A stretch of DNA of 64,000 nucleotides from the sequence record DRR378314_402; one strand, given 5' to 3'. Numbering within the stretch: the first letter of the stretch is position 1; every line of letters begins with the position of its first letter. The position numbers and the translations under genes are program-made. Below the pieces are notes generated by a model that searched no databases, was not told the DNA's origin, and saw only the letters and a list, made by a program, of their open reading frames with translations. Positions 29,174 to 51,940 of this stretch are shown here, one piece after another.

Positions 29174-32017
29174 TTAGAACGAGTAACGCACGCCCAATGC
29201 AAATGTGCGTGAGTAAATAGCGTTACTAAAGTTGAACAGATTATCGTTTCCTTCGCCGTAATAGCTCTGGTAAACGTCATCAAGAATATTAGTTGCATCA
29301 AATGTAACTACAAAATCATCGGTAACGTCGTAGCTAAATTGGAAATCTAAACTTTGTTCTGGACGATTCCAAAATTGTAATGGGTTAGCAAATATAGCTG
29401 CTTCATTGCCCGTGTAGAACTCTGAACGCCATACATAGGATAAACGCATGTCGAACGAGTCACGCTCGTAAATACCGACAATGCTGTATGATTCATCTGA
29501 AACACCAGCCATGTTCGAGTCAATATAATTAGAGATATTACCTTCTTCATCATAATCCGGGGTATCTTGTGACGAATCAAGCAAAGTGAAGCTGGCCTGT
29601 ACGCCTAACCCGTCGAGCATAGAGGGTAAGTTTTCAGGGAAATAAACAGCCCCTAATTCAAAGCCAGACAACTCGCCATTAGACGCATTTACAGGTGCAC
29701 TTAAAACATAAGGACGGGTTACACCATCATTACCTTCACGAACAACGGTTTTACGGCCAGGAACTACAAGCCCCTCTATTTCCCGCTTAAAGTAAGCACC
29801 ATAAATTGAACTGGAATCTGCAAAATACCACTCTAATGATAAATCGTAGTTTTTCGATTCGGTCGGTTCAAGATCTGGATTACCGCCGGTACCTTCACCA
29901 TAAGTAGCACCTTCGGTGAGCGGGTCAGTCCAGTACTGCAGTGCGTTTAAGTCAGCAAAGGCAGGCATACGTAGAGTTTCGGTATAAGCAACACGACCAA
30001 CAACATCGTCAGTAATATTCCAGTTTAACATTAAACTAGGCAGTATTTTGCTCGCCTCAGCTTTAGCTGAACTTGACTCAAACACATTAGTATTTGTGCC
30101 CGTTTCAGCTGTAAACGCCATATCTTGTTTATATTTAACGTAACGGACGCCAACTTCACCACTGATATTCTCTGTTAAGAAGAAATTTGTCGTAGCGTAT
30201 AACGCATAAGATTCTTCTTGAATATCAAAGGTTTTATAGACATCTTCGGCTTCGAGCCCATAAATATCGCGTATTACACTGGCATTCTCAAGTAAGTAGC
30301 CGCCATCCGAAGTAATAAAGCTGTCGAATACATCGGCACGCCCATCGAGGTAGTCATCAACTTGGTACACTACGCCCGAACCATCGCCCGATGCACCACC
30401 GGCTTCCAGTTGTTCAATTAAACTGGCTACCGATGTATTTGCAATTCCACTTTCTTGAGTACGAGTAAAGGCTTCAGCTGTACGGTCTTCATAACGCCCA
30501 CCAAACGTCACTTTATTAATGTAGGCATTACCAACTAAATACTCGGCATCAAAGGTAAAGGCTAAAGAGTCACCCCGGTTACCGTCGCCGTTATCATAGA
30601 GAGTGCCCGCGTTCCAGTTCTCAACCGCCGCCATATCGGCTTCGTTTACAGCAGTATTCGGGTCATCCCAAAATGAGATGCCAGGCATGCCATCATTATC
30701 ATTGAAATCAACATCCAGGCCTGGCGCTACACGGTCAAAACGCATAGCAAAAAAGTCACTTTCATACTCACTTTCCTGGTACACAATTTCAGAGTTAATA
30801 GTCAAGTAATCGTTGGGTAGCCACTCGGCACCTAAGGCATATAGGTAACTATCCGTTTTTTCTGCGTTAGAGTCACCACTTTGAAAACCACCCGCACCAA
30901 TCGCTTGCTTTTCTTTGACTACGTTAGTGCCATCAAAAACGACTGGCGCATCAATAGTGCCATTACCGTTTTCAAAAGTGTTTGAAAACCATAAAGCATT
31001 TTGAGAGTTATTTTCATACCCGGTATAAAAACCTTCCGCTGTAATCTCTAGTGTCTCATCAAGTGCCCATTGTAATGAAACAGAAGCTGCCGGACGTTTT
31101 CTTAGACCTGTAAAAGAAGTACCAAATATGGCATCACGGGCTAGTAAATACTCTGTCGGTACACCATTAACATCGAGCGTTGACCCCGGTGCTGTTGGCA
31201 ATCCGCTTTCTCGGCCACCCTGCCAAATCAGATTATCTTGTGAATCTCTATTGGGAATACGTGAGTAAGGCGAATAACCTGTTGCTGGTTGATCGGTAAA
31301 AAATGGAAATGCTGCGCCTGCAGTAATAGTGTCATCGCGGTAATGAGTTTCTGCGTAAGACACATTAAGCAGTGCCCCGAACTCGCCTGCACCATCAATC
31401 TCCCAGCGATCACTGACCAGTGCACTGATATTGGGATCGATTTCATCCGGTTGATCTGAATAAATACCTCGGGCCGCTAAAACAACCTTTCCGTCATCGA
31501 AGTCGAATGGGCGATGAGTTTTTATGTCAATTGAACCTGCAATACCACGTTCAACGTGCGCCGCTGAACGGGTTTTATAAACGGTAACACCCGATAGTAA
31601 ACTGGCAGGAATATCTTGTAGTGAGACGTCTCGACCCGCACCGGTAAAAATATTACGGCCGTTCACTGTCGTGTGCACATCAGTTAAGCCGCGGATTGAC
31701 ACAGTGCTAACTTCGCCCGCACCACGCCCTGTAGTTTGCACACCGGTTACACGCTGCAATGCCTCAACTACGTTGTTATCAGGGAATTTACCGATATCTT
31801 CAGCAATAATTGCATCGACAATTTGCACACTGCCGCGCTTTTCAGCTAATGCCTGATTCAAACTGCCACGTATGCCTGATACCTGAATTACTTCCATAGC
31901 ATCAGTGGATTCTTCTTGTTGCGCCGCATTTTCGTCTTCAGCTTGTTGCTGGGCTAAAGCCATTCCTGGCATTAAAGCCAGCATAATTGACGTTGCTAGT
32001 AATTTTTTCTTAAACAT
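29174..32017 (-). CDS. TonB-dependent receptor (glycan uptake type)
   Basis: Signal peptide; EVIQVSGIRGSL TonB box region; AEDIGKFPD.N..EALQRVTGV plug; GNPDLEP; terminal YSF. Confidence 0.94.
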   Translation of the reverse strand: MFKKKLLATSIMLALMPGMALAQQQAEDENAAQQEESTDAMEVIQVSGIRGSLNQALAEKRGSVQIVDAIIAEDIGKFPDNNVVEALQRVTGVQTTGRGAGEVSTVSIRGLTDVHTTVNGRNIFTGAGRDVSLQDIPASLLSGVTVYKTRSAAHVERGIAGSIDIKTHRPFDFDDGKVVLAARGIYSDQPDEIDPNISALVSDRWEIDGAGEFGALLNVSYAETHYRDDTITAGAAFPFFTDQPATGYSPYSRIPNRDSQDNLIWQGGRESGLPTAPGSTLDVNGVPTEYLLARDAIFGTSFTGLRKRPAASVSLQWALDETLEITAEGFYTGYENNSQNALWFSNTFENGNGTIDAPVVFDGTNVVKEKQAIGAGGFQSGDSNAEKTDSYLYALGAEWLPNDYLTINSEIVYQESEYESDFFAMRFDRVAPGLDVDFNDNDGMPGISFWDDPNTAVNEADMAAVENWNAGTLYDNGDGNRGDSLAFTFDAEYLVGNAYINKVTFGGRYEDRTAEAFTRTQESGIANTSVASLIEQLEAGGASGDGSGVVYQVDDYLDGRADVFDSFITSDGGYLLENASVIRDIYGLEAEDVYKTFDIQEESYALYATTNFFLTENISGEVGVRYVKYKQDMAFTAETGTNTNVFESSSAKAEASKILPSLMLNWNITDDVVGRVAYTETLRMPAFADLNALQYWTDPLTEGATYGEGTGGNPDLEPTESKNYDLSLEWYFADSSSIYGAYFKREIEGLVVPGRKTVVREGNDGVTRPYVLSAPVNASNGELSGFELGAVYFPENLPSMLDGLGVQASFTLLDSSQDTPDYDEEGNISNYIDSNMAGVSDESYSIVGIYERDSFDMRLSYVWRSEFYTGNEAAIFANPLQFWNRPEQSLDFQFSYDVTDDFVVTFDATNILDDVYQSYYGEGNDNLFNFSNAIYSRTFALGVRYSF

Positions 32018-32124: not shown

Positions 32125-33894
32125 CTACTGCACTTGTCTTATAAAAAAATGCTGACATAAGGTGTCATTAGCGGGAGCCTGGTTAATGGACATCCCCTCC
32201 TTAAGTCCGCAGCTTGCTAAATCGAGCGTTAAACCAGAGTGACGTGAAATAACTTCCATAGCGCCGCTGCTATGAAGTTGTAGTTTCCACTGACCAGCAT
32301 CACTCGCACACTCACCTGTGGTGACAGTTGCACCGGCGGCTAGTGAGTTATTTTCAATAGCCAGACACTTTTCGTTTGCTGTATTAACCAGATTTACAAA
32401 GCCGTGTTCGGCGTTGCGAATATGCCAGTGTTGCGAAGCCTCATTCATCCAATTCTGTTGTACTAATGTGTTGTTTTTCAGGCTGGCAACTTTGCCGCTT
32501 TGACGACTCTGCATTACGACCGGCTCATTCGTGCTTAACTGCCACTGGCCCTGCAATGTCTCGTCCGATTCAAGGTTGGTGAAGGACAAGTAGCCATTGT
32601 CGTCGGTGCTGACTTGCCATTTCTGGCAACTTTTATTTTCCCAGGCACTATTATCAGTGCCGCATTTGGCTGCTGTCAGAAACTCACCTTCAGCATTAGC
32701 CAGACGAAACTCACCGTGACCAACTGGGTCAATAACCCACTGGTTCTCGTTGGTGCATTCAGCTGTCGAATCAGCATCAGCCAAACATTGGTTATCTGCA
32801 GCATTACGAATAACAAAAGAGGTGCCTTGTGGAGTCACCTTGAATGGACCGTCTTCGCCTGAAGGTACTTTTATGGGTTCTCCTGCCGATACAGGCTCGC
32901 CAAAGTTCGGGGTTCCATCGTCGTTCCAGGTAAATGGTTGTGCCCGCAATGAGCGAGTCGCGCTGCACCCATCCGTTTCTTTGCTGTTGCCGTGGTATAT
33001 GATCCAGTCTTCGGTACCGTCAGGAGAAGAAAAGAAGCCGTTATGTCCGGGACCATACACACCATTGCCGCGTTCAAAAACGGGTTCTGGGTTTTTCTCC
33101 CAATGGTCTGGATTCAGAGGGTCGCTCCCGGTTAGTTCGATAAGCCCCAACTTATAGTCCGGCGTGTCGCAATAACTGGCGGAGTAAATAACAAAGGTTC
33201 TGCCGTCTTTCTGTAAGGTTTCGGCTCCTTCAGTTACTGGGCGACCAGAGCGCTCCCAGTCGTATTCCGGGCGGGTTAATACCTTGCGCTCGCCGGTTAT
33301 GGTCCACGGGTTTTCCATTTCAGCAATCCAGTTCAACTGAGCTTCGTCTTCCTGGCCGGCGTTTACCCATTCGGACCACAGTAAGTACAGTTTGTCGTCG
33401 TACTGTAGATAGTTTCCGTCAATGTTCCAGCTGTCAGGCATAGGTGAGCCTTTAAGCGTGTAAGGACCCATGGGATCATCACCGGCACTTTCGAGTACCG
33501 TTAAGTGTTGTCCGCCAAGATCTTCCTGACGTCCAGAAGTAAACATCATGTACCAACGGTAACCGTCGGGACCCTCTAACCGATGAAATTCGTACGCCCA
33601 AAAGTTACAGCAACGTTCAGCGCTTGTTTCTGACCAAAGGTAAACCGGCTCTGCGTCGGCCAGACCCGCTAGAGTAGGGGACTTACGCATAACAAGCTGC
33701 GAGGTCCAGGTGGTCGTTGTCAGGTAATAGTTACCATCAAAGTACTCCAGCCAGGGGTCTGCGCCGTTTTCGTAAATTGGGTTTGTAAAAGTGTCAGATG
33801 CACTTTCTTCGGCGTAAGTGCCAAAAGCTGGCAGCAGGAAACCTGCGATGACCAATGCTTTTAACTTCAATGATGAAAACTTACCTAAAGCCAT
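32125..33894 (-). CDS. Exported GH43 arabinofuranosidase-type enzyme with C-terminal ricin-B/CBM13-like domains
   Basis: GADPW, WAYE, IDG, TEG, YSAS, GPGHN; C-terminal Cys-containing QxW repeats. Confidence 0.88.
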   Translation of the reverse strand: MALGKFSSLKLKALVIAGFLLPAFGTYAEESASDTFTNPIYENGADPWLEYFDGNYYLTTTTWTSQLVMRKSPTLAGLADAEPVYLWSETSAERCCNFWAYEFHRLEGPDGYRWYMMFTSGRQEDLGGQHLTVLESAGDDPMGPYTLKGSPMPDSWNIDGNYLQYDDKLYLLWSEWVNAGQEDEAQLNWIAEMENPWTITGERKVLTRPEYDWERSGRPVTEGAETLQKDGRTFVIYSASYCDTPDYKLGLIELTGSDPLNPDHWEKNPEPVFERGNGVYGPGHNGFFSSPDGTEDWIIYHGNSKETDGCSATRSLRAQPFTWNDDGTPNFGEPVSAGEPIKVPSGEDGPFKVTPQGTSFVIRNAADNQCLADADSTAECTNENQWVIDPVGHGEFRLANAEGEFLTAAKCGTDNSAWENKSCQKWQVSTDDNGYLSFTNLESDETLQGQWQLSTNEPVVMQSRQSGKVASLKNNTLVQQNWMNEASQHWHIRNAEHGFVNLVNTANEKCLAIENNSLAAGATVTTGECASDAGQWKLQLHSSGAMEVISRHSGLTLDLASCGLKEGMSINQAPANDTLCQHFFIRQVQ

Positions 33895-33943: not shown

Positions 33944-33961
33944 GTTGACGTTCACGTTAAC
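33944..33961. promoter_or_regulatory. 18-bp palindrome, LiuR-like site 1
   Basis: GTTGACGTTCACGTTAAC. Confidence 0.6.
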
Positions 33962-33968
33962 TGTATTT

Positions 33969-33983
33969 GTATTACTATATTAC
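33969..33983. promoter_or_regulatory. Locus-specific operator (FadR/DgoR-type candidate)
   Basis: Reverse complement GTAATATAGTAATAC is 14/15 identical to 51883-51897; lies just downstream of a -10. Confidence 0.65.
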
Positions 33984-33988
33984 GGTTG

Positions 33989-34017
33989 AGTGTATGACCA
34001 GTATTTAACCGTTGCAA
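33989..34017 (-). promoter_or_regulatory. Sigma70 promoter for the GH43-ricin/TonB receptor operon
   Basis: Minus strand TTGCAA-N17-TACACT. Confidence 0.6.
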
Positions 34018-34038
34018 CCCTAATGTTAAAAAAAATCA

Positions 34039-34056
34039 GTTGACGTTTACGTTAAC
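34039..34056. promoter_or_regulatory. 18-bp palindrome, LiuR-like site 2
   Basis: GTTGACGTTTACGTTAAC inside a longer AAAAAATCA...TGATTTTTT inverted repeat. Confidence 0.65.
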
Positions 34057-34144
34057 TGATTTTTTCAGAGCAAAAATAAGGGAAGCTTTTTCAGAGTTGA
34101 TTAACTCCTCAAAACGCTTCCCTGTATAGGATGTCAGGCTGATT

Positions 34145-35179
34145 TTAGTCTTTTTTTATGAGCTCACTTTTGTAGTTTTCAAGTACCGACTTATCGATTT
34201 CTGGCCACCCATCCGACCAGTTAACCGGGGCTATTTTTAGCTTTTGCAATCCATTATCGGCGGCTTCATAAGCATGAAAAACTAAATAATCAGTGTCGCC
34301 AAAATTATAAATACTGTTGTGACCAACGCCGTACCATTCGTCATTACCCTTCAGCACGATAGAGCCACCACCTTTCGCCATATCGACACCGTCTTTATCC
34401 AGGTATGGGCCTGTTACATCTTTTGAACGACCAACGGCCATATGGTAGGTGCTATCTGCTCCCCGGCAGCATTTTCCATAGGAAACGAATAAGTAGTAGT
34501 AATCGTTATGCTTGAAAATAAAGGGCGCTTCAATTTCAGCAGGTCCGGCTTCAGCGTCAGGTGTAAACGCGGGTCGGTCGAGTTTAGCCAGGGTATACCA
34601 CTCTTCGGGCTGGGCAATCTCGGTCAGGTTATCTTTCATTTTTACCAGCTTCATACCAGCCCAGAAAGAACCAAAACTCATCCAGGGCGTACCGTCGTCA
34701 TCAATAATGATGTTCGGATCAATCGCATTCCAGAGGTCACGGTTAGGTACCGACTGAACGACAATGCCTTTGTCTTCCCATTCGTACTCAGAAGAGTCCT
34801 GGTCTAAAGTTTTATTCACTGTCACGCCAATAGCAGAAGTATTTTCGCCAAATTGTGAAACAGAATAATACAGGTAGTACTGATCATTGTGGTGAAAAAC
34901 ATCCGGAGCCCATAAGTGACCACCAAATTCTGGTGCAACTTCTTTAGCCCACTCGGGTTCGTCGGCAAAAACGCGTCCTTCATGTTGCCAGTTTTCCATA
35001 TCGTCTGAGCTATAAAACGTAATACCAGGGCCGGTGGAAAAGAGGTAATAGGTATCCCCTTCTTTAGCCATGACCGGATCGTGAATACTCACTTGTTCTG
35101 CATTGACGAAGGAACTCAGGCTGATAGAAGCTGAGATGGCCAGTGCGCTAAGCCACTTAACTGAACTGTTTTTAGGCAT
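34145..35179 (-). CDS. GH43 endo-1,5-alpha-L-arabinanase, exported
   Basis: Signal peptide; IHDP, LWAPD, WNAIDP, FGSFW, IEAP, GKCC, VGHN match the Arb43A/AbnA-type arabinanase pattern. Confidence 0.9.
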   Translation of the reverse strand: MPKNSSVKWLSALAISASISLSSFVNAEQVSIHDPVMAKEGDTYYLFSTGPGITFYSSDDMENWQHEGRVFADEPEWAKEVAPEFGGHLWAPDVFHHNDQYYLYYSVSQFGENTSAIGVTVNKTLDQDSSEYEWEDKGIVVQSVPNRDLWNAIDPNIIIDDDGTPWMSFGSFWAGMKLVKMKDNLTEIAQPEEWYTLAKLDRPAFTPDAEAGPAEIEAPFIFKHNDYYYLFVSYGKCCRGADSTYHMAVGRSKDVTGPYLDKDGVDMAKGGGSIVLKGNDEWYGVGHNSIYNFGDTDYLVFHAYEAADNGLQKLKIAPVNWSDGWPEIDKSVLENYKSELIKKD

Positions 35180-35227
35180 AGGTGGAACCCCTTATTTATC
35201 TATGTACGCTTTAATTATAAGAAAATT

Positions 35228-35245
35228 ATTTACGTTAACGTAAAC
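35228..35245. promoter_or_regulatory. 18-bp palindrome, LiuR-like site 3
   Basis: A-TTTACGTTAACGTAAA-C; perfect 16-bp palindrome in the divergent promoter region, 24 bp before a TTGACA. Confidence 0.7.
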
Positions 35246-35284
35246 TGAATTACCTACTATCAGGTATCTTGACACCCACTTATA

Positions 35285-35300
35285 AGTAATACAATATGAC
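35285..35300. promoter_or_regulatory. Locus-specific operator (FadR/DgoR-type candidate)
   Basis: AGTAATACAATATGAC is 14/16 identical to 51765-51780 and overlaps the -10 region after TTGACA (35269). Confidence 0.65.
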
Positions 35301-35352
35301 CAATCAAAAAATTCGATAACAAATTTATAATGATGTGCCGGACGGGGGATGT

Positions 35353-36729
35353 GTGAAAACACAAAAATTAACAACGCTGGAGAAGGTTGGTTTTGGCTCT
35401 GGGGATATGGCTGTAAACGTCGTCATATCCTCCATGATGCTCATTATAACTTTCTTCTACACCGATATTTTCGGTCTAAAACCTGAAGATGTCGGGCTAC
35501 TTTTACTTTTAGTCCGGTTTGTAGATGCTTTCACCGACCCGTTGATGGGCGTTATTACGGACAAAGTGGATACTCGCTGGGGACGTTATCGTCCTTATTT
35601 TCTATTCTTTTCCGTTCCCTTTGGCATTTCCGTTTTCCTGACATTTACCACGCCTGATTTAGACTACGCCAGCAAGTTAGTGTGGGCATATTCCACTTAT
35701 ATCTTCATGACTATCATGACGACGGCGGTCACTATCCCTTACATCTCGCTTATTGGGGTGCTGACCAACGACCCTAAAGACCGCTTGTCTGCCAACGGTT
35801 ATCGTCTGTTTTTTGCGAAAATAGCGGCGTTTCTGGTCACTATTATTGTACCTATTTTGGCGGCGCGTTGGGGCGAAGGGCAGGAAGCTCAGGGCTATCA
35901 GTTTGCTATGGGGCTAATGGCTTTAATGGCAACAATACTCTTCCTGTTTTGCTTCTTTACAACAACAGAGCGGGTACGTCATGAAATTAACCCGAAATCG
36001 TTGTGGCAGCAGTTTAAAGTCCTGTTAAAAAATGACCAATGGCAAGTTCTGGTGGGCGCCTGTGTTCTGGGAACTATAGGTTATGTCATTCGTGGTTCTG
36101 TCGCGGCTTACTATGCTAAGTATTATCTCGGGGGAGGAAGTACTCTGTTATCAATGTTCCTGGCGACAGGGGTGATAGCCGCATTACTCGCTATGATAGC
36201 GTCTACCTGGATCACTAAGCGCTATTGCAAAGTAAAGTTGTTTCGCTATAGCCAGGTAGCCGTTGGTGTATTAAGTGTCATGTTGTTCTTTTTCGTTAAC
36301 CCTAACGACGTTGTCATGGCTTTTGTCTTGTATTTTCTTGTGTCTTTCGTGGTTGATTTGCATGCTCCCGTCTTCTGGTCAGCTATATCAGAGTCTGTCG
36401 ATTACGGTCACCATGAAACCGGTGAACGGGTTTCGGGTCTTGCTTTTGGTGGTATTTCTTTTGCGCAAAAAGCGGGAATGGGGCTAGCTGGATTTATTGT
36501 CGGGTCTCTTCTGACCTTTTTCGGTTACGTTCCTGACCAGGAACAGTCAGACTTTGCGCTGTTTGGCATTGCCCTGATGCTTAGTGTTGTTCCGGGCTTA
36601 TTCCATACGTTAACAGGCATGCTGATGTTTAAATATAAAATTACAGACAGTTACTTCAAGACCATCAAAGCCGATGGGTTAGAAGGCGAAGAAGTGGTTA
36701 TTCCAACGTTAAAATCTGAAAAGAAATAA
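35353..36729 (+). CDS. GPH family (glycoside-pentoside-hexuronide) cation symporter
   Basis: EKVGFGSGD; FYTDIFGL; DAFTDPLMG..D...TRWGRYRPY; about 12 TMs; GTG start assumed. Confidence 0.92.
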   Translation: MKTQKLTTLEKVGFGSGDMAVNVVISSMMLIITFFYTDIFGLKPEDVGLLLLLVRFVDAFTDPLMGVITDKVDTRWGRYRPYFLFFSVPFGISVFLTFTTPDLDYASKLVWAYSTYIFMTIMTTAVTIPYISLIGVLTNDPKDRLSANGYRLFFAKIAAFLVTIIVPILAARWGEGQEAQGYQFAMGLMALMATILFLFCFFTTTERVRHEINPKSLWQQFKVLLKNDQWQVLVGACVLGTIGYVIRGSVAAYYAKYYLGGGSTLLSMFLATGVIAALLAMIASTWITKRYCKVKLFRYSQVAVGVLSVMLFFFVNPNDVVMAFVLYFLVSFVVDLHAPVFWSAISESVDYGHHETGERVSGLAFGGISFAQKAGMGLAGFIVGSLLTFFGYVPDQEQSDFALFGIALMLSVVPGLFHTLTGMLMFKYKITDSYFKTIKADGLEGEEVVIPTLKSEKK

Positions 36730-36756: not shown

Positions 36757-37704
36757 ATGTCAATTTTAAAACCTTTAATAGAACAACGAGCTGATCCTTT
36801 TATTTATAAGCATAGCGATGGATTCTATTACTTTACTGCGTCGGTGCCCGCCTACGACAGAATAGAGTTAAGAAGAGCGCAGACTATAGAGGGGCTTGCT
36901 GCTGCTGAAACGGTCTCGGTATGGCATAAGCCGGATACCGGCCCTTATTCTGAGCTTATCTGGGCTCCTGAAATTCATTTCAATGAAGGCGCCTGGTATG
37001 TGTATTTTGCCGCGGCTCCCAGTCGCGAAATTAAAGATGATTTGTTCCAGCATCGTATGTACGCCATTCGCTGTAAAGACGAAAATCCGCTAACTGGGGA
37101 GTGGGAATTTCTGGGGCAGATAGACACGGGTATTGATACCTTTTGTCTTGATGCAACTACCTTTACTCACAAGGGCCAGCTTTACTACATGTGGGCTCAA
37201 AAAGAGAAAGACATTCCGGGTAACTCTAACCTTCTGATCGCGACGATGGAGAACCCATGGACGCTGTCGTCAGAGCCTGTTCGCCTGACCATTCCTGAAT
37301 TTGAGTGGGAGTGCCGAGGCTTTATGGTAAATGAAGGACCCGCGGTGCTGCAGCGTAACGGTAAAGTCTTCGTGACTTACTCTGCCAGCGCAACCGACGA
37401 AAACTACGCCATGGGTCTATTGTGGGCGGATGAAAACGCCGATTTAATGGATCCGTCCAGCTGGCATAAGTCGACAAAACCTGTGTTAGTAAGCGAACCC
37501 AAAGATGACGTTTTCGGTCCCGGACATAACAGTTTTACTGTCGCCGAAGACGATGAGTCTGTGCTGCTCGTTTACCATGCCCGTACTTACACTGAAATTG
37601 AAGGTGACCCATTGTGGGATCCAAACCGCCATACTTATGTGAAGCATTTACGCTGGGATGAAGATGGCATGCCCGTTTTTGGCAAAGCGTCCAGAGACGA
37701 GTAA
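36757..37704 (+). CDS. Cytoplasmic GH43 alpha-L-arabinofuranosidase
   Basis: IEQRADP, IWAPEIH, LDAT, VNEGP, YSASATD, GPGHNSF; no signal peptide. Confidence 0.9.
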   Translation: MSILKPLIEQRADPFIYKHSDGFYYFTASVPAYDRIELRRAQTIEGLAAAETVSVWHKPDTGPYSELIWAPEIHFNEGAWYVYFAAAPSREIKDDLFQHRMYAIRCKDENPLTGEWEFLGQIDTGIDTFCLDATTFTHKGQLYYMWAQKEKDIPGNSNLLIATMENPWTLSSEPVRLTIPEFEWECRGFMVNEGPAVLQRNGKVFVTYSASATDENYAMGLLWADENADLMDPSSWHKSTKPVLVSEPKDDVFGPGHNSFTVAEDDESVLLVYHARTYTEIEGDPLWDPNRHTYVKHLRWDEDGMPVFGKASRDE

Positions 37705-37729
37705 CAACGAAAACGAGTAGTGTCCCCTT

Positions 37730-37755
37730 GACCCCGCCCGAGCGGGGTCTTTTTT
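37730..37755 (+). terminator. Intrinsic terminator inside the apparent operon
   Basis: GACCCCGC-CCGA-GCGGGGTC-TTTTTT immediately before the GGAG RBS of the next gene. Confidence 0.75.
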
Positions 37756-37765
37756 GGAGTTGACT

Positions 37766-40126
37766 ATGAAATACCTTATTCCATTATTGCTTGCCCTTTC
37801 TTTCCTTTCCCATGCCCAAAGTCAGTCGGTAGAGACGGTGCCTTTACAGAAGGTTAGTTTGTTACCCAGCCCTTTTAAACACGCGCAGGATACTAATCTA
37901 AACTACTTACTTGAGCTGGATGCTGATCGTTTGCTCGCACCTTATCGCCAGCAGGCAGGTATTGAGAGCCCAGAGCCAAGCTACGGTAACTGGGAAGGCG
38001 ACGGTTTGGGTGGACACATAGGCGGACACTACCTAAGTGGGTTAGCATTGACTTATGCTGCAACCGGCAATGAAGAAATACACCAGCGTTTGCAGTATAT
38101 GCTGAACTCACTGGCAGAAGTGCAGAAAGCTAATGGCAATGGTTATTTAGGTGGCATTCCAGGTGGTGAAGCCATGTGGGAAGAAATTCAGGCTGGTAAT
38201 ATTGATGCCGATCTTTTTGTGCTGAACGATAAATGGGTTCCCTGGTATAACCTGGATAAAGTCTATGCCGGACTGCGTGACGTTTATCGCTATACAGATA
38301 ACGAGAAAGCGCTGCAGATGTTGCTGGCTCTGACAGACTGGACAATTGAATTAGTCAGTGAATTGTCTGATGAACAAATTCAGCAAATGTTGGTGAGTGA
38401 GCACGGTGGACTGAATATTGTATTTGCCGATGTCTATGAAATTACGGGCGAAGAGAAATACCTGCATCTGGCACGGCAATTTTCCCACCAGCAAATTTTA
38501 CAGCCTTTAAGTCAGCATAAGGACCAGCTGGACGGTCTGCATGCCAATACCCAAATCCCAAAAGTGGTAGGTTTTGAGCGTGTGCATGGTGTCGCGGGTG
38601 ATGAGGCTTATGGTGAGGCCGCCGAGTATTTCTGGCGGAATGTTGTCAAAAAACGCACTGTTGCTATTGGTGGTAACAGTGTGCGTGAACACTTTCATGA
38701 CAGTGACGATTTCAGCGACATGATTGAGGACGTTGAAGGGCCGGAAACCTGTAACAGTTATAACATGCTCAAGCTGTCCAGGTTGCTTTATCAGCGCGGT
38801 GCTGAAACCCGTTATATTGATTACTATGAGCGCACTCTGTACAACCATATTTTATCTTCGCAGCATCCGCAAAGTGGCGGTTTGGTTTACTTCACGCCTA
38901 TGCGGCCGAATCACTACCGGGTTTATTCTGCAGTGCATGATGCCATGTGGTGCTGTGTTGGCTCGGGTATTGAGAGTCATGCCAAGTACGGGCGTATGAT
39001 TTATGCCAGTGATGAACAGTCTTTATATGTGAATCTGTTTATTCCTTCACGTCTGCAATGGCAGGAGCGGGGACTGGATTTAACCATGAGCACCCGCTTT
39101 CCGGACGACGACTCCGTTAGCATTACCATTAACCAAAAAACTGATGTGGCTCTGAAGTTACGTTACCCCAGATGGGTGGAAGCGGATCAGCTGAGCCTCA
39201 GCGTTAATGGCGAAGCGCAGGAGGTAAGCGCGTCACCCGGGGAATACATTAGCATTCAACGCAACTGGGAACCGGGTGATAAGGTTGAACTGAAGCTTCC
39301 TATGCAGCTTTCCTTAGAGCAAATGCCGGATAAAAGCGATTACTATGCGGTGTTATTCGGGCCTATTGTTCTGGCCGCGAAAACCGACCCAATGCCGGGC
39401 GAACAGCTTAATTTTGTCGCCGACGATAGCCGCATGGGACACATTGCTCAGGGAGAGCAGTGCCCGCTTGAGTCTGTGCCTATGTTTGTTGCCGACAGTC
39501 CTGACTTTTTGGACAAAATAAAACCAGTACCCGGTGAACCACTGACCTTTGAGGTTAAAGATCTGGTGCATCCAGCACAGAATGGCAGTACGCGGTTAAT
39601 TCCATTTTTCCGGCTGCACGATTCGCGTTACATGCTGTATTGGCCTTATAGCCCGGAAGAAAAGGTCGACCAATTCCGCGCCGCTCAGTCGTCGTTGAGT
39701 GAAGAGCGCCAACAGTTAGAAGAGCTGACGGTAGACAGCTTAATACCGGGCGAGCAGCAACCTGAGGCGGATCATTACTTCAAAGGGGAAGATACTCAGG
39801 CGGGGGTTAATAATGGCGACCACTGGCGTGATGCCTCTGGCTGGTTCAGTTATGAAATGAAGAACCCGGAAGGGCAGGCCAGAGTATTAAGACTGACCTA
39901 CTTTGGTGGCGACAGCGGTCGCCGGTTTGACGTTTTGGTTAACGGTGAGCGATTGACCAGAGTGCACTTAAAGGGAGAGCAGGGGGCTAAGCTGTTTAGT
40001 CGCGAGTACGAGCTACCTGACAAGTTGCACGATGAAAGTACGTTAACAGTACGCTTTGAAGCACATGAAGGCAGCATTGCTGGTGGTATCTACGGCGTTC
40101 GCTTGCTAAAACACGCCGTAGATTAG
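37766..40126 (+). CDS. GH127/GH146 beta-L-arabinofuranosidase, exported
   Basis: Signal peptide; GHIGGHYLS, EHGG, HANTQIPK, GPETCNSYNMLKL, WCCVGSG. Confidence 0.88.
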   Translation: MKYLIPLLLALSFLSHAQSQSVETVPLQKVSLLPSPFKHAQDTNLNYLLELDADRLLAPYRQQAGIESPEPSYGNWEGDGLGGHIGGHYLSGLALTYAATGNEEIHQRLQYMLNSLAEVQKANGNGYLGGIPGGEAMWEEIQAGNIDADLFVLNDKWVPWYNLDKVYAGLRDVYRYTDNEKALQMLLALTDWTIELVSELSDEQIQQMLVSEHGGLNIVFADVYEITGEEKYLHLARQFSHQQILQPLSQHKDQLDGLHANTQIPKVVGFERVHGVAGDEAYGEAAEYFWRNVVKKRTVAIGGNSVREHFHDSDDFSDMIEDVEGPETCNSYNMLKLSRLLYQRGAETRYIDYYERTLYNHILSSQHPQSGGLVYFTPMRPNHYRVYSAVHDAMWCCVGSGIESHAKYGRMIYASDEQSLYVNLFIPSRLQWQERGLDLTMSTRFPDDDSVSITINQKTDVALKLRYPRWVEADQLSLSVNGEAQEVSASPGEYISIQRNWEPGDKVELKLPMQLSLEQMPDKSDYYAVLFGPIVLAAKTDPMPGEQLNFVADDSRMGHIAQGEQCPLESVPMFVADSPDFLDKIKPVPGEPLTFEVKDLVHPAQNGSTRLIPFFRLHDSRYMLYWPYSPEEKVDQFRAAQSSLSEERQQLEELTVDSLIPGEQQPEADHYFKGEDTQAGVNNGDHWRDASGWFSYEMKNPEGQARVLRLTYFGGDSGRRFDVLVNGERLTRVHLKGEQGAKLFSREYELPDKLHDESTLTVRFEAHEGSIAGGIYGVRLLKHAVD

Positions 40127-40136
40127 CCACCTTAAC

Positions 40137-41117
40137 TTATTGGAGTTTCAGATCGGGTTCCTGTTGCGCAAAATCAGGGAACCCGTCGTCGCTCCAGCGC
40201 AGTAACCGAACCCGGGTGTTGCGATTGGGATCATGTAGTGAGTTACCGTCAATTTCACGGTAGCTGCGTGCATGATAAATCACTAAATCGCGATCATCTT
40301 TATCAACGGTAAAGCTGCCATGTCCTGGTCCGTAACGTCTTAGTTCTGGGTTAGTATAAAATACTGGCTCCTCTGACTTCTGCCAGGTGCTGGCATCCAG
40401 TAAGTCCGCATCGGCATCAGCCCATAACAACCCGGTAGCATAGTTTTCGTCGGTTGCGCTGGCTGAAAAGCTCAGGAAGATACGGCCATTTCGAATTAAC
40501 GCCGAAGCCCCTTCATTCACCGAGTATCCTTTCGTTTCCCATTCAAATTCAGGCTCCGAAATTTTGGTCTGTGGGCCTACTTTTGTCGGGCTGATCAGTT
40601 CTGCTATGAAAAGGGCAGAGTTATAATCATATTTAGGATGATGCTGAGCCCAGACAAGATAATTGGTACCCTTATGACGAAAATGTGTCGCATCCAGATT
40701 GAATGTGTCCCAGGCGGTCTGTAACTGTCCAAGTTCCTTCCATTCACCAGTGAGTGGGTCTTCACTTTTGTTTTCTAAAACGTAGGTTCTTATATTGAAA
40801 GGAGCGTCGGCTCGACCTGCAGCAAAATAAATGTACCAGGCGTCATCAATGCGGTGTATTTCCGGAGCCCAGATATTGGCGCTCATATCCCCTTGTTCGC
40901 GTTGCTGCCATATGGTTTTAACGTCAGCTTCGGCTAAACCTGCTACCGACTCGGCACGTCGCAATTCAATGCGGTTAAACTCTGGCACTGAAGCGGTAAA
41001 ATAGTAGTTACTGTCAACTTTGAGCACCCAGGGGTCTGCACGCTGTGGAATTAACACGTCGGCTGCAGCGAATAAAGGAAAGCAAAGTAAACTGAGTAAG
41101 GCCAGATAGTTAGTCAT
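40137..41117 (-). CDS. Exported GH43 alpha-L-arabinofuranosidase
   Basis: Signal peptide; QRADPW, IWAPEIH, LDAT, VNEG, SASATDENY, GPGHGSF. Confidence 0.88.
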   Translation of the reverse strand: MTNYLALLSLLCFPLFAAADVLIPQRADPWVLKVDSNYYFTASVPEFNRIELRRAESVAGLAEADVKTIWQQREQGDMSANIWAPEIHRIDDAWYIYFAAGRADAPFNIRTYVLENKSEDPLTGEWKELGQLQTAWDTFNLDATHFRHKGTNYLVWAQHHPKYDYNSALFIAELISPTKVGPQTKISEPEFEWETKGYSVNEGASALIRNGRIFLSFSASATDENYATGLLWADADADLLDASTWQKSEEPVFYTNPELRRYGPGHGSFTVDKDDRDLVIYHARSYREIDGNSLHDPNRNTRVRLLRWSDDGFPDFAQQEPDLKLQ

Positions 41118-41991
41118 AATAATTCACTTTAGGTTCTGGCAGGCCGCGAGCGCCTGTCTGGTAGATAAGAACAGAACCGGCTAACGGCTCGCTGGCCTTT
41201 TGCTCCGGTGTAAGTCCTTCGGTGGCGGAGGTGACAAAAAGTATGTCCATATTAGGGCCGCCGAAAGCAACACAGGTAGGCTGCGACACTGGCAGTTCAA
41301 GTATACCTTCGAGTTTTCCAGCAGAACTAAAGCGCGCCACGCCATTACCACCCCAAAGAGCAACCCATAAACGGCCTTGCGCATCGACAATTGCCCCATC
41401 GGGCTCGCCCTGTGGAACCGAAGCAAATACTTGAGAGTTTGAAGGAACCCCGTTTAATGGATCAAAGTCATACTGACGAATAGTCCCTGTTGGCGTATCT
41501 GCGTGATACATACGCGTGCCTTCCTGGTTCCAACACAGTGCGTTAGGAATTTGGAAACCTCCAAGCACCGCATGGCAGCCAGTTACATCAACACGATAGA
41601 GGCTACCTTTTAGGCCTTCGTCCTGTTCGACCATAGTGGCTGACCAAAAACGTCCCTGGCGATCAGTGCGACCGTCGTTAAAACGGTGCCCGTTAAGCTC
41701 TTGTTCTGGTCGGGCTATCCATTCAACCTGCTGTGTTTCGGGTTCGTAAGTGGCGAAACCTGAAGCAAAACTGACCATCATTTTTACGGGCTCTGTGCCG
41801 ATGATAGAAAACGCAGTCAGGCGTTCTGGTGTGCTCCAGGTTTCCAATTCTTTAGTGTGCCAGTGGTAACAATGGAGTTGGCAACCGTGAATGTCTGTCC
41901 ACCACAGGGTATTGGTTAATGAATGCCAGACAATGCCTTCACCAAGTCGGTTAGTCACATCAATGCTGGTTATAAAATGACAATTATCCAC
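41110..41991 (-). CDS. SMP-30/gluconolactonase family lactonase (putative L-arabinonolactonase)
   Basis: LGEG..W, RFNDGRTD..GRFW, PNAL, PDG..VD..G.LWVA, PT.VAFGG; GTG start overlapping the yjfF stop. Confidence 0.85.
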   Translation of the reverse strand: MDNCHFITSIDVTNRLGEGIVWHSLTNTLWWTDIHGCQLHCYHWHTKELETWSTPERLTAFSIIGTEPVKMMVSFASGFATYEPETQQVEWIARPEQELNGHRFNDGRTDRQGRFWSATMVEQDEGLKGSLYRVDVTGCHAVLGGFQIPNALCWNQEGTRMYHADTPTGTIRQYDFDPLNGVPSNSQVFASVPQGEPDGAIVDAQGRLWVALWGGNGVARFSSAGKLEGILELPVSQPTCVAFGGPNMDILFVTSATEGLTPEQKASEPLAGSVLIYQTGARGLPEPKVNYYD

Positions 41992-42955
41992 GTTGAGAAC
42001 TCCGGTTGAGAACTTTTTGCAAGGCAATGAAAACGAACAACAGTAAGCCTATAGCAATGCGCGCCCACCAGCTATTTAAGGTGCCTTCAAAGATAATATA
42101 GGTCTGGATAATGCCCATAAGCATCACCCCTAATAATGTCCCTAAAATATACCCACTACCGCCGGTTAACAGCGTACCACCAATAACCACCGCGGCGATG
42201 GCGTCGAGCTCCATGCCAATACCGGTTAAGGCATAGCCGGAAAAGGTATAAAAGGTATAGAGAATGCCTGCAAAAGCAGCCAGGAAACTGGACATGGCGT
42301 AAATGCCAATAGTACTTCGTGCTATAGGCACGCCCATTAGTGCTGCTGACTGGCTATTGCCACCAATAGCGTAAATGTAGCCGCCAAAACGACTGTAGTG
42401 AGTGAGCAAAAAAAGCCCGGCTAATACCGCAATAACAATAATAGCGTAACTCGGGAGCCAGGCATTGCCGGGGAGTGAAATGCCTGAGTCTGCAACGGCA
42501 TAATATAAAGGATGATCAATGCCTACGGACTCTTCACTAATGGTGGTTGCCAGCCCTCGCGCAAAAAACATACCCGCCAGGGTTACAATAAAAGGTTGAA
42601 GCTTGTAAAAGTAAATCAGGCTGCCCATTAGAGTACCGAACAGCGTCCCGATAACCAGTACCAAAGGAAAGACCAGCAGCGGGTGCCATTGATATTCACT
42701 GATAAGCACGGCACAGAGTACGCCACTTAGAGCGACCACAGCACCAACAGACAAATCGATGCCGCCGGAGAGAATAACCAGCGTCATGCCTAAGGCGACG
42801 ACTAATAAAAACGCATTATCAGTCAGTAAGTTAGTAACGACCTGCAAACTGGCGAAGCCTTCAAACTGAAAACCGCCAATAATAAACATGACCACCAATA
42901 AAGAGAATGTGGCGAGCAGGGGAACAAATCGACGTGCAATCATGAGTGTCTCCAT
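41984..42955 (-). CDS. yjfF: Sugar ABC permease YjfF
   Basis: NLLTDNAFL; ILSGGIDLSVG; QPFIVTLAGMF.ARG; ELDAIAAVVIGGTLLTGG. Confidence 0.85.
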   Translation of the reverse strand: METLMIARRFVPLLATFSLLVVMFIIGGFQFEGFASLQVVTNLLTDNAFLLVVALGMTLVILSGGIDLSVGAVVALSGVLCAVLISEYQWHPLLVFPLVLVIGTLFGTLMGSLIYFYKLQPFIVTLAGMFFARGLATTISEESVGIDHPLYYAVADSGISLPGNAWLPSYAIIVIAVLAGLFLLTHYSRFGGYIYAIGGNSQSAALMGVPIARSTIGIYAMSSFLAAFAGILYTFYTFSGYALTGIGMELDAIAAVVIGGTLLTGGSGYILGTLLGVMLMGIIQTYIIFEGTLNSWWARIAIGLLLFVFIALQKVLNRSSQRG

Positions 42956-43962
42956 TTGCCGGCCAGTCCGCTAATTTGCTTGCGGAAAATATCGGACTGC
43001 AGTAGCAATACCAGCACCACTGCCAGTGCTTTTATCAATAAATTAAGTTTAGAGGGCATTCCGCTGACCATAATGGTTGTGTTCAGGGTTTGAATAATGA
43101 GTACGCCAATTAGTGACAAGGGAATAGAAAAGCGCCCACCGCTTAACGCAGCACCGCCGAGAACCACCGCCAGGATGGCATCGAGCTCGAGCCACAAACC
43201 CACATTATTCGCATCTGAACCGTTGATATCGGCAGCGCTTATAATGCCGGCCAGCGCGGCGCAAAAACCGGTTAATAGATAGGCCATCAGTTTTACGGTG
43301 CGGTCATTAATTCCGAGGTAGCGGCTGGCGCTAGAATTGCAGCCAACGGCTTCGACGAAAAGCCCCAGCGCGGTGCGGCGCAGCATTAACTGACTGATGC
43401 CAAAAACCAGCAGCACCAGCCATATAGTGACGGGAATGCCAAGCAGAGTGCCGCTTCCCAACCAGCTGAAACCGGCATGTTGAAAGGTGACTATCTGACC
43501 GTCGTTAAGGAGCTGGGCGATGCCGCGACCGGTCACCATTAATAGCAGCGTCGCTATAATAGGCTGAATGCCCATATAACTGACCAGAGCGCCGTTGATT
43601 AAGCCGCATAACAAACCACTGGCGATACCGGCCACGAGTACCGTAAACAGACTGACGTCCGTAGCCACCAGTAAATTGGCACAAACTGCACCGGCAATGG
43701 CCATCACGGCACCTACCGACAGGTCAATTCCGCCGGTGGCAATTACAACTGTCATGCCAATGGCTAACAACGCGACCGGAGCACTGCGGTGGAGAATATC
43801 AATTGGATTACCGTAGAAACGGCCGTTATCAAAATGAATGTCTAAGAATGAGGCGTCCAGCAGCAAATTAAATATTAACATTAACAGCAGGGCGGCCAGG
43901 GGCCAGATGTAGCGTGATTTAAGCAGCCGCTCTGTAAAAGAATGTGATGTTTCTGTGTTCAT
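42940..43962 (-). CDS. ytfT: Sugar ABC permease YtfT
   Basis: VIATGGIDLSVG; QPIIATL; DANNVGLWLELDAILAVV. Confidence 0.85.
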   Translation of the reverse strand: MNTETSHSFTERLLKSRYIWPLAALLLMLIFNLLLDASFLDIHFDNGRFYGNPIDILHRSAPVALLAIGMTVVIATGGIDLSVGAVMAIAGAVCANLLVATDVSLFTVLVAGIASGLLCGLINGALVSYMGIQPIIATLLLMVTGRGIAQLLNDGQIVTFQHAGFSWLGSGTLLGIPVTIWLVLLVFGISQLMLRRTALGLFVEAVGCNSSASRYLGINDRTVKLMAYLLTGFCAALAGIISAADINGSDANNVGLWLELDAILAVVLGGAALSGGRFSIPLSLIGVLIIQTLNTTIMVSGMPSKLNLLIKALAVVLVLLLQSDIFRKQISGLAGKWRHS

Positions 43963-43966
43963 TGAT

Positions 43967-45478
43967 TTACACCTCGGCTATCGAATGCATTATGGATTGA
44001 GAGGTTAATTCTGCGCCTTGTAGCTCCGCGACTTTGCGGTGGTCACGCATAACGACAACACGGTTAGCAAAGGCGACCAGCTCATCCAGTTCGGATGACG
44101 CCACTAATAACGACATGCCTTCATCGCACAGAGATTTAATTAACTTAATGATTTCGGCGTGTGCACCAATATCGATACCGCGAGTGGGTTCGTCTAAAAT
44201 CAATAGCTGCGGGCTAATAGCCAGCCAGCGGGCAAGAATGACTTTTTGCTGGTTTCCACCGCTGAGTTCTTCAATCGGCTTTTCTGAATCGGGCGTGGCG
44301 ATGTGAAAAGATTCAATATACTGATTGGCCAGAGTTCTTTGTTTTTCCGGTGATATATAGCGCCACCAGCCAGCCTGCACCTGAAGGGCCAGAGCGATAT
44401 TCTCGCGGATGGAAAGTGGGCCAATAATACCGTCAGTTTTACGATCTTCAGGGCAGAGTGCAATGCCTTGCTGCATAGCGTCTGCCGGCTGGTTAAGAGT
44501 AACGGGCTGCTGGCGTATTTTAATCTCTCCGCTTTTCAGTGTGTCGATGCCGAATAACGCGCGACATACTTCAGTACGCCCCGAACCCAGTAAACCTGCC
44601 ATACCCACAGCCTCACCTTTATGGACTGTCAGTGATACATCATCGACTGAGTGCGGCACAGTGGCGTTTGACACCGTCAGTAAAGGTTCACGTTTTGTCG
44701 GCTCGGTGGCCTCTGTTTGTTCTCCGGTAACCTGTTGCAGTTCCTGACCCAGCATGGCTTCAATTAAGCGGTTGCGCGACAGATCAGCAATGGGGTATTC
44801 ACCTATTAACTTGCCGGAACGTAAAACGGTGATGCGATCAGAAATTTGATAGACCTGTTCCAGAAAGTGAGTAATAAACAAAATGGCGATGCCTTCACTT
44901 TTCAGCTGACGCAGAATATCAAAAAGAGTGTCTACTTCGCTGCTATCGAGGCTGGCGGTGGGCTCATCCAGTACCAGAACTTTAGCGTTCATGGCAACGC
45001 CACGGGCAATAGCAACGAGTTGCTGTATCGCCACAGAATAGTGAGATAAAGATTCGGTAACATCAATGTCGAGTTTGAAGCGCTTCAATAGCTTGCGGGC
45101 GTCTTCCGCCATTTGTTGCCAGCGAATGCAGCCGAAACGCGTCGGTTCGCGCCCAAGGAACAAGTTATGGGCAACGCTTAAGTTCGGCAGTAAATTCACT
45201 TCTTGATACACAGGAGCTATTCCCAGCTTCTGGGCTTCTGCGGTATTGGACGGGCTTATTTCTTGTTGCTGCAGCTGAATGCTTCCGCTGTCTTTTGGTA
45301 ATACGCCGGTCATTATTTTTACCAACGTGGATTTGCCGGCGCCATTTTCCCCCAGCAGCGCGTGAACTTCGCCCGGGAATAAGCGGAAATTAACGGCATC
45401 CAGGGCTTTTACTCCGGGGAATTGCTTACTGATATTACTGAGTTCAAATAGTGCTTTTTCTGATTGTTCTTGTTGCAT
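43967..45478 (-). CDS. ytfR: Sugar ABC ATP-binding protein YtfR
   Basis: Two ABC domains: GENGAGKST, LDEPTASL, LSGGNQQK, DEPTRGIDIGAH. Confidence 0.87.
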   Translation of the reverse strand: MQQEQSEKALFELSNISKQFPGVKALDAVNFRLFPGEVHALLGENGAGKSTLVKIMTGVLPKDSGSIQLQQQEISPSNTAEAQKLGIAPVYQEVNLLPNLSVAHNLFLGREPTRFGCIRWQQMAEDARKLLKRFKLDIDVTESLSHYSVAIQQLVAIARGVAMNAKVLVLDEPTASLDSSEVDTLFDILRQLKSEGIAILFITHFLEQVYQISDRITVLRSGKLIGEYPIADLSRNRLIEAMLGQELQQVTGEQTEATEPTKREPLLTVSNATVPHSVDDVSLTVHKGEAVGMAGLLGSGRTEVCRALFGIDTLKSGEIKIRQQPVTLNQPADAMQQGIALCPEDRKTDGIIGPLSIRENIALALQVQAGWWRYISPEKQRTLANQYIESFHIATPDSEKPIEELSGGNQQKVILARWLAISPQLLILDEPTRGIDIGAHAEIIKLIKSLCDEGMSLLVASSELDELVAFANRVVVMRDHRKVAELQGAELTSQSIMHSIAEV

Positions 45479-45504
45479 GATTTTCTCCCAACGACAAAGG
45501 CGGC

Positions 45505-46437: not shown

Positions 46438-46509
46438 GTTTTTCGCCTTTATCTTATTGTTTACTTATTATTTGGGGCAAATTCATGTTGCTGTGTTTTC
46501 AGCCGCCAC

Positions 46510-47550: not shown

Positions 47551-47553
47551 GGC

Positions 47554-49155: not shown

Positions 49156-49213
49156 AATATATCCTGTTACTTAAAGGTACTCTGCCGCGCGGCGCGCGAC
49201 CCGAAATATCCTG

Positions 49214-49996: not shown

Positions 49997-50007
49997 TGAA
50001 CACCTGT

Positions 50008-51747: not shown

Positions 51748-51764
51748 GGCTACACCTGTTAATT

Positions 51765-51780
51765 AGTAATACAATACTAC
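51765..51780. promoter_or_regulatory. Locus-specific operator (FadR/DgoR-type candidate)
   Basis: AGTAATACAATACTAC upstream of the dehydratase, downstream of a minus-strand TTGACA (51807-51812). Confidence 0.65.
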
Positions 51781-51882
51781 GTTATGGTCGCGATTCTTCC
51801 TTCGAATGTCAATCGCTGACTCAATTCTGTACAGCATTAACCAAAATTTATAGCGGGCTCGATCATTGCTCAAGCCTAAAAG

Positions 51883-51897
51883 GTAATATAGTATTAC
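51883..51897. promoter_or_regulatory. Locus-specific operator (FadR/DgoR-type candidate)
   Basis: GTAATA-TAG-TATTAC perfect 6-bp inverted repeat upstream of the AraD1-like gene. Confidence 0.65.
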
Positions 51898-51940
51898 TTT
51901 TTAAATTTTGTAGTATAAATTCATAGCAGGAGCCTATCTA

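Follow-up and report, generated by a model that had tools for sequence, protein, structure and literature searches.

Why should a locus for sugar use carry what look like operators of a regulator of branched-chain amino acid (BCAA) catabolism? The question is raised by a DNA stretch of 64,000 nucleotides from sequence record DRR378314_402 (the window), in which positions 29174-53670 form an arabinan/L-arabinose locus composed of a TonB receptor, four GH43s, a GH127-family enzyme, AraT, an ABC transporter, the enzymes of an oxidative pathway and a regulator of the FadR subfamily (Table 1). Its best named relatives are from Idiomarina (96%) and Aliidiomarina soli (77%). The catabolic/ABC operon encodes a sugar-acid dehydratase, an SDR dehydrogenase, an aldehyde dehydrogenase, a mutarotase, a Gaf/YtfQRT-type ABC transporter, a lactonase and a GH43. 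All promoters are predictions from a simple sigma-70 matrix, checked for conservation; the RNA runs consisted of four contig sets, mostly at a depth below 5 and free of strand or start information. The hairpin on the 3' side of abnA is likely a terminator between abnA and the second of the boxes described below. The TonB receptor is 43% identical to that of A. soli (L012:13169-15835) and 76-81% identical to those of Pseudoalteromonas-type loci, while the genes next to it are 77-91% identical; the receptor gene was probably exchanged. Positions 1-29000 contain many short, mostly same-strand genes that differ among close genomes, and look like a variable region.

Table 1. Features of the arabinan/L-arabinose locus, in order of position in the window.
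Feature	Position	Strand	Remarks
TonB-dependent receptor, Omp-Ara type	29174..32017	-	Pfam PF00593/PF07715; TIGR01782 above cut-off
GH43 hydrolase with ricin-type lectin domains	32125..33894	-	signal-peptide-like N-terminus, judged by eye
LiuR-type box 1, TTGACGTTCACGTTAA	33945..33960		score 21.9; kept in L011, L012, L020
FadR-type (AraR-II) box	33967..33979	-	just past predicted GH43-ricin operon start; fits GT-N3-AC
Predicted promoter TTGCAA-17-TACACT, GH43-ricin and TonB receptor operon	33989..34017	-	-10 and spacing same in A. soli and Gallaecimonas
LiuR-type box 2, TTGACGTTTACGTTAA	34040..34055		score 26.6; centre about -66 of predicted GH43-ricin/TonB-receptor promoter
Hairpin and U-run 3' of abnA	34072..34123	-	-23.2 kcal/mol, z -3.4
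GH43 endo-arabinanase, AbnA-like	34145..35179	-	best NCBIfam model AbnA, under its cut-off; signal-peptide-like N-terminus by eye
LiuR-type box 3, TTTACGTTAACGTAAA	35229..35244		score 26.1; about -66 of predicted araT promoter
Predicted araT promoter, TTGACA with TACAAT (15) or CAATAT (17)	35269..35297	+	conserved in A. soli
Predicted abnA promoter, TTGATT-17-TATAAG	35279..35307	-	A. soli counterpart TTGAAA-17-TATAGT
FadR-type (AraR-II) box	35284..35296	-	spans overlapping araT and abnA promoters (predicted)
GPH-family symporter AraT	35353..36729	+	likely start GTG 35353; ORF tool start 35335
GH43 and GH127-family arabinofuranosidases	36757..40126	+	3' of araT
Catabolic/ABC operon	40137..51747	-	promoter region has FadR-type box only
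FadR-type box, catabolic/ABC operon promoter	51764..51776	-	LiuR box absent here
FadR-type box, araD1 promoter	51887..51899	+	weaker variant at 51908-51918
AraD1/GguC-family protein	51941..52936	+	NF040903 above cut-off
FadR-subfamily regulator (GntR and FCD), probable AraR-II	52939..53670	-	59-66% homologues in Shewanella, Rheinheimera and others

A sequence-only reading of the window had pointed to three palindromes resembling the operator of LiuR, the MerR-family regulator of BCAA catabolism. The three 18-mers that it quoted are exact matches at 33944, 34039 and 35228, and the -35 hexamers lie where it placed them (TTGCAA, 34012-34017; TTGACA, 35269-35274). Box 1 is, as claimed, beyond the predicted start, with its centre at about +30 of the GH43-ricin/TonB-receptor promoter. 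Box 3 is doubly placed, which the sequence-only reading had missed: besides its position at about -66 of the araT promoter, it lies past the start of the divergent abnA promoter, at about +36 (both promoters predicted). The pattern TTKACGTWWACGTWAA, with up to two mismatches, gave six strand-matches at four places in the window, as compared to a chance mean of 0.48, and six strand-matches were reached in 0 of 100 shuffles. The fourth place, 39927, is in a coding region and has a matrix score of only 8.1. The LiuR matrix rests on 16 distinct sites taken from the DNA before liuR/ivdA, ldh, etf, bkdA1, ivdB and gltB (training scores 24.1-32.9); it was trained without sugar loci and, being made from fetched promoters, differs from the RegPrecise matrix. 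On this scale, the rest of the 64-kb window stays below 10, and about 0.001-0.002 sites are expected by chance per 64 kb at a score of at least 21.9, that of the lowest-scoring box. The three palindromes are genuine.

The same reading had seen no such site at the catabolic promoters and no MerR gene in the window, and both observations hold. The best matrix scores around the FadR-type boxes at 51748-51940 are 1.5 and -8.7, and a search with a LiuR profile found no MerR-like frame at E<=1. Its proposal that the secreted enzymes and uptake genes are gated is supported in part: LiuR boxes are present at the promoters of the hydrolases, the TonB receptor and the AraT symporter, but the arabinofuranose ABC transporter and its catabolic operon have none.

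liuR and its operator were examined in the nearest genome, G001, which stands in for the window's own genome and bears the same locus and the same sites. The 16-mer of box 3 is identical to the liuR-ivdA operator 16-mer of G001, which sits between ivdA and a MerR gene of 139 residues, the first of the liu operon. Thus liuR, whose absence had been named as evidence against the idea, is present in the nearest genome beside an identical site. Ten loci of G001 were returned for places with one mismatch, and the five that score above 20 are liuR-ivdA, bkdA1 and the three arabinan boxes; liu/ivd genes are where the motif had been expected. Exact matches to TTNACGTWWACGTNAA occur at least once in all 28 Idiomarina genomes, with 37 in total as compared to 17 for a reversed control pattern, and the site was at liuR-ivdA in 25/25 genomes where it was fetched. 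The nine extra exact sites belong to the arabinan locus (four; G001, G209), a maltodextrin locus (three; G203, G158, G032), and etfB and gdh (two; G222). The motif is found in 21/21 and 37/39 genomes of two sister genera, at liuR or ldh in the six loci fetched. In a metagenome scan with an extended motif, the neighbours were mostly liu, etf, ldh, acyl-CoA and acetate-uptake genes, and no sugar gene was recognised beside the motif, by eye and from N-termini only, among 80 of more than 121 loci listed. The boxes match the LiuR operator form, an even 16-bp palindrome with two ACGT cores, being either the same 16-mer or variants at the variable positions. With the identity to the liuR-ivdA operator and matrix scores of 21.9-26.6, LiuR very probably binds all three palindromes.

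A strong LiuR box was also seen in Shewanella, after a cytochrome c gene and before yihI (L263:1501, L264:1501, L265:776 and L164:1501, in G289, G287, G288 and G227). By synteny, csrC is expected in this long intergenic region, where the Rfam CsrC match is weak (E 1e-4, below the gathering score). In three genomes, the LiuR box has its centre at -60.5/-61.5 of TTGACA-17/18-TTTAAT, whose -35 region is overlapped by a CRP-like box. The box may link LiuR to a Csr-type small RNA.

The window and A. soli agree at 43 of 48 box positions (16/16 in box 3), and all five changes fall at the variable positions 3, 8, 9 and 14, as compared to 254/375 identical positions in the rest of the two intergenic regions and 30-38% at four-fold degenerate sites. 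The boxes persist in A. soli though synonymous sites are saturated; these putative operators are under selection. The intergenic boxes are kept in 4/4 complete Idiomarinaceae copies of the locus. A quick AraT tree groups these copies in a single clade (support 100), and they are therefore counted as one acquisition.

Whether homologous loci elsewhere lack the sites had been proposed as a check: most loci in other genera do, but those of Gallaecimonas do not. Among the best 80 of 312 loci in an abnA search, the intergenic boxes were found only in three Idiomarinaceae loci, and 36 of the other 77 have an AraT homologue too. No box within one mismatch was present in 22 further AraT-orthologue loci from other genera, and the best score outside was 15.9, in one Shewanella locus (L018), with 5.1 at the matching place in G577. 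In the three Gallaecimonas genomes (G309, G334, G378), the regulator is sister to the Idiomarinaceae copies (FastTree, 0.95), and the syntenic loci have weak boxes (6.1, 8.0 and 13.9) at -65.5/-66.5 of the orthologous promoter, as well as boxes scoring 11.9-15.5 just inside the araT transcript, at about +6. Nine of 14 AraR-box regions in Gallaecimonas score at least 6 for the palindrome, as compared to 4/57 regions around the TATTGTATTAC-type box of the local regulator in other genera, the shuffled 99th percentile being 6.0. The weaker boxes at orthologous positions imply that the wiring is older than the Idiomarina genus, and the boxes are stronger in Idiomarinaceae than in these sister loci. 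G233 has only a remnant of the arabinan locus (L470:1651-3528), with an intact regulator beside a truncated araD1 and TonB receptor pieces, and is thus uninformative on the boxes.

The second case is a maltodextrin locus composed of GH13s, a TonB receptor, an MFS gene, a glucoamylase and a LacI gene with two MalR-type boxes, found in 3/79 Idiomarinaceae genomes searched (G203, G158 and G032). All three loci have an exact LiuR box, with scores of 29.0-30.9. Out of 69 matching genomes, 30 maltodextrin loci were fetched; in the 28 that belong to other genera, there were 0 boxes within one mismatch, and six close promoter regions score at most 8.3. The three Idiomarina loci form a clade (0.99), sister to two box-less Pseudoalteromonas-like loci (0.97). 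The box is 16/16 identical between G203 and G032, at 35% four-fold identity, and lies at about -147/-155 of the predicted promoters, while G158 has its box elsewhere, at -65.5 to -67.5 and with 3 bp between it and a MalR box. The maltodextrin box is an independent gain, in a locus unrelated to the one for arabinan. In Gallaecimonas, boxes scoring 17.9 and 20.0 are found at the maltodextrin receptor, in 2/2 genomes with the gene and at +24.5. We regard the predicted LiuR operators as selected sites of a known regulator, in a functional context that is new for it; they were gained or sharpened on at least two occasions.

Where the LiuR box sits in G158 (L149:7860-7891), the related locus L186 holds a second, degenerate MalR box. 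The LiuR and MalR motifs share a TACGT core, and one may derive from the other. Replacement of CRP sites by the box was considered for the maltodextrin promoter and rejected, as neither group has clear CRP sites.

How far does the wiring extend? In Idiomarinaceae, two of five locus types have the box, namely arabinan and maltodextrin. The widespread beta-glucan locus, with 28 loci (one partial) and two reduced copies, has no box, the best score (13.6) being within a coding region; in one trehalose and one inositol locus, both box-less, nothing scores 9 or above; and none of 20 other TonB-receptor loci, not sugar-like by their N-termini, reaches 12. The box-less beta-glucan, trehalose and inositol loci speak against general sugar control in Idiomarinaceae. 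The catabolite-control layer proposed in the sequence-only reading would not extend to the sugar loci of Idiomarina as a whole. The inositol-catabolism cluster (L250, G216:C9), with two LacI genes, occurs in one Idiomarina genome and is unusual for the genus.

In Gallaecimonas, the part of the listed sites that was fetched includes boxes of weak to moderate score at arabinan, maltodextrin and beta-glucoside genes and at two sugar permease genes; the beta-glucoside receptor box scores 17.4, and those of the two permeases 17.4 and 10.4. LiuR-like sites number 27, 27 and 19 in G309, G334 and G378, as compared to 7, 6 and 11 for the control, and they precede prpB, gdh, ldh, bkdA1, kbl, carA, ilvG, TonB receptors and sugar permeases (L489-L534). 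They possibly form a global regulon.

The need for outside amino acids offers itself as a reason for the boxes. ilvC was not found in G001, G209, G203, G158 and G237, that is in 5/6 box-carrying genomes tested, and it was not found in 15/16 sampled genomes of three Idiomarina-like genera but found in 179/185 others. I. loihiensis is reportedly a valine auxotroph, according to its genome study. However, auxotrophy as the only reason is weakened, since G032 has ilvC and leuB and keeps the exact box, and Gallaecimonas has ilvC and keeps the -66 box. The full ilv and leu cluster of G032 (L254:5681-17534), unlike other sampled genomes of these genera, was possibly regained by transfer.

The positions of the boxes bear on the direction of control. 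Box 2 is centred at -65.5/-66.5 of the predicted promoter in the window, A. soli and 3/3 Gallaecimonas genomes, that is in two families, and box 3 shares with the G158 maltodextrin box the range given above (predicted promoters). Position -66 lies upstream of the polymerase footprint. The boxes at liuR, ldh, etfB, etfD, prpB and ivdA mostly begin at the -35 hexamer, with the centre at about -27.5, which is a repressor geometry, and these boxes at catabolic targets fit the repressor role reported for P. aeruginosa in the part of a review dealing with LiuR (PMC8871633). At the biosynthetic genes ilvG (2/3 Gallaecimonas), carA and gltB, the boxes are far upstream. According to passages of PMC3223726, gltBD and thrABC of Shewanella fall on amino acids, which its authors credit to ArgR and attenuation. 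Taken together, the -66 boxes, the far-upstream biosynthetic boxes and the fall of gltBD and thrABC suggest that LiuR, bound to DNA at low BCAA levels, acts as an activator. Upstream boxes elsewhere are scattered, at about -55 to -103, and -66 is not universal. The gltB promoters fetched had too few boxes (1/30) to serve as a test of geometry, and a classical MerR promoter with a 19-bp spacer was rejected, as TTTACG-19-TATAAT can be read at box 3 of the window, whereas A. soli does not conserve it. We favour activation from about -66 when BCAAs are scarce over repression, and give it an even chance of being right; the points against it include the sole experimental account found, which describes LiuR as a repressor (PMC8871633, in part), the boxes at +30/+36, +6 and +24.5, the maltodextrin box at about -147/-155 and the scatter of upstream positions.

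Possible, but on the whole unlikely, is that LiuR only represses. Two operators would then flank the GH43-ricin promoter and one would block abnA. The locus would be switched on by an abundance of BCAA catabolites, and this would act as a permissive gate in a BCAA auxotroph, which cannot grow on sugar unless Leu/Ile/Val come from outside. Besides the repressor description just cited, several boxes look repressing by position (+30/+36 in the window, about +6 at araT and +24.5 at the maltodextrin receptor of Gallaecimonas), and the boxes are strongest and most numerous in the genomes in which ilvC was not found. On the other hand, both G032 and Gallaecimonas keep their boxes despite having ilvC, the beta-glucan locus of the same auxotrophs is ungated, and a single box at -66 leaves the promoter uncovered. 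A DNA loop between boxes 1 and 2 was rejected as well, because their spacings of 95, 96 and 100 bp are out of helical phase.

We consider it improbable that the palindrome is recognised by another protein of the same specificity, be it a further MerR-like factor or the FadR-type regulator of the locus, even though the GTwwAC at the centre of the palindrome fits the loose GntR-family pattern GT-Nx-AC given in passages of PMC4494728. The FadR-type gene travels with a different box, TATTGTATTAC / TATAGTATTAC, a second motif absent from the sequence-only reading and present in all four promoter regions (33967, 35284, 51764 and 51887). By itself the loose FadR-type pattern is not above chance in the window (19 vs 16.35), but an alignment of 11 loci, drawn from five genera, shows no variation in the core of the box, and the TATTGTATTAC box fits the GT-N3-AC rule of FadR-subfamily operators, as passages of PMC4494728 state it. 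In the genomes of the regulator's homologues (59-66%), the loci carry the TATTGTATTAC-type box without the palindrome. The palindrome was accordingly rejected as the AraR-II operator, as it does not occur at the catabolic promoters and most loci that have a homologue of the regulator lack it, and the use of the palindrome by the local regulator, raised earlier as a way for the idea to fail, has the evidence against it. Likewise, the low count among regions around the FadR-type box elsewhere (4/57), the LacI regulator of the maltodextrin locus, which has its own boxes while the palindrome is present too, and the constant site at liuR-ivdA in Idiomarina argue against another protein. Finally, it is very doubtful that the boxes are bound without useful regulation of the sugar genes, as donor relics or titration sites, for although the box position differs among maltodextrin loci and most homologous loci are without the wiring, the boxes have been retained despite the saturation of synonymous sites, surpass those of Gallaecimonas in strength in Idiomarinaceae, and in the maltodextrin locus are kept at two different positions while missing from the closest outgroup loci.

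In the mechanism that includes activation from about -66, LiuR, a chromosomal MerR-family regulator of BCAA catabolism, would have the three palindromes as operators and provide a second input on three promoters, which serve the secreted arabinanases, the TonB receptor and the AraT symporter. AraR-II would repress from the -10/+1 regions and, as family knowledge suggests, be released by an arabinose-derived signal. LiuR would be on the DNA while BCAA catabolites, its presumed effector, are scarce, and at about -66 of the predicted promoters it would help RNA polymerase, provided that the sign is as we infer; the boxes at +30 to +36 would damp or tune expression. Full expression of the scavenging genes would then occur only with arabinan and with amino acids not in surplus: amino acids first, sugar second. 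More tentatively, and with somewhat more doubt than confidence, we propose that a two-way LiuR, repressing from the -35 region and activating from upstream, provides amino-acids-first catabolite control in protein-eating marine gammaproteobacteria, with newly acquired polysaccharide loci repeatedly wired in by gained or sharpened operators. With the same reserve, its cases would be the arabinan locus shared with Gallaecimonas and the maltodextrin locus, after transfer from a Pseudoalteromonas-like donor.

Idiomarina are described as protein specialists that lost sugar genes (PMC6336423, in part). The operators suggest that such protein-eating marine bacteria may tune sugar use to amino-acid supply. 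The papers found do not address the ranking of amino acids and sugars at the level of transcription in such bacteria, for which a named regulator, exact operators and cultured strains are now available for testing. The remark that a sugar locus under LiuR was not known to be described agrees with the LiuR rows of Table S3 of PMC5343134, which contain no sugar target, that is no glycoside hydrolase, sugar transporter or TonB receptor. In the literature searched, with subscription journals mostly outside its scope, no paper on LiuR sites on polysaccharide loci was found, and the relevant parts of PMC7305145 and PMC2808921 add nothing further on this subject. New here are the LiuR-type boxes on sugar loci, the independent maltodextrin box and the -66 box of Gallaecimonas. 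If true, LiuR would reach beyond amino-acid metabolism, with a possible activator role, and the loci would clearly exemplify how a host regulon has taken in foreign gene clusters on more than one occasion.

The closest known system is the LiuR regulon itself, as outlined in parts of PMC5343134 and PMC3223726, which shares with our genomes the MerR-family regulator beside liu/ivd, the same palindrome, and boxes at liuR, ivdA, bkdA1, ldh and etf. Lineage-specific expansions of this regulon to aceBA, gltBD and thrABC are reported in the same sources (PMC5343134, PMC3223726). By contrast, the boxes described here are at polysaccharide loci, partly upstream in a position suggesting activation, and their targets, arabinan hydrolases and uptake genes, are outside the usual BCAA, acyl-CoA and linked central metabolism. 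In P. putida, a transcriptome module named after LiuR covers sugar catabolism (ribose and lipid; bioRxiv 10.1101/2022.01.11.475908), but the name is a co-expression label, and the passages concerned give no operator or binding evidence. The ara locus and AraR-II of Shewanella resemble the locus of the window in the GntR-type regulator, AraT, Omp-Ara, ABC transporter, mutarotase, dehydrogenase, dehydratase and lactonase (PMC2996990, in part), and in the FadR-type box at most promoters, GafABCD being described in a passage of PMC10191376. Unlike it, the window locus shows no araBAD and has AraD1 and an aldehyde dehydrogenase (oxidative route), and the Shewanella ara loci fetched have no strong LiuR box, with one score of 15.9 in L018 and 5.1 at the matching place in G577. 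Amino-acid status also ranks above sugar use under CodY in Firmicutes and Crc/Hfq in Pseudomonas, and CodY senses BCAAs and can repress or activate. These are, however, unrelated proteins with unrelated motifs, whereas here a small MerR-family pathway regulator would act, and on a subset of loci.
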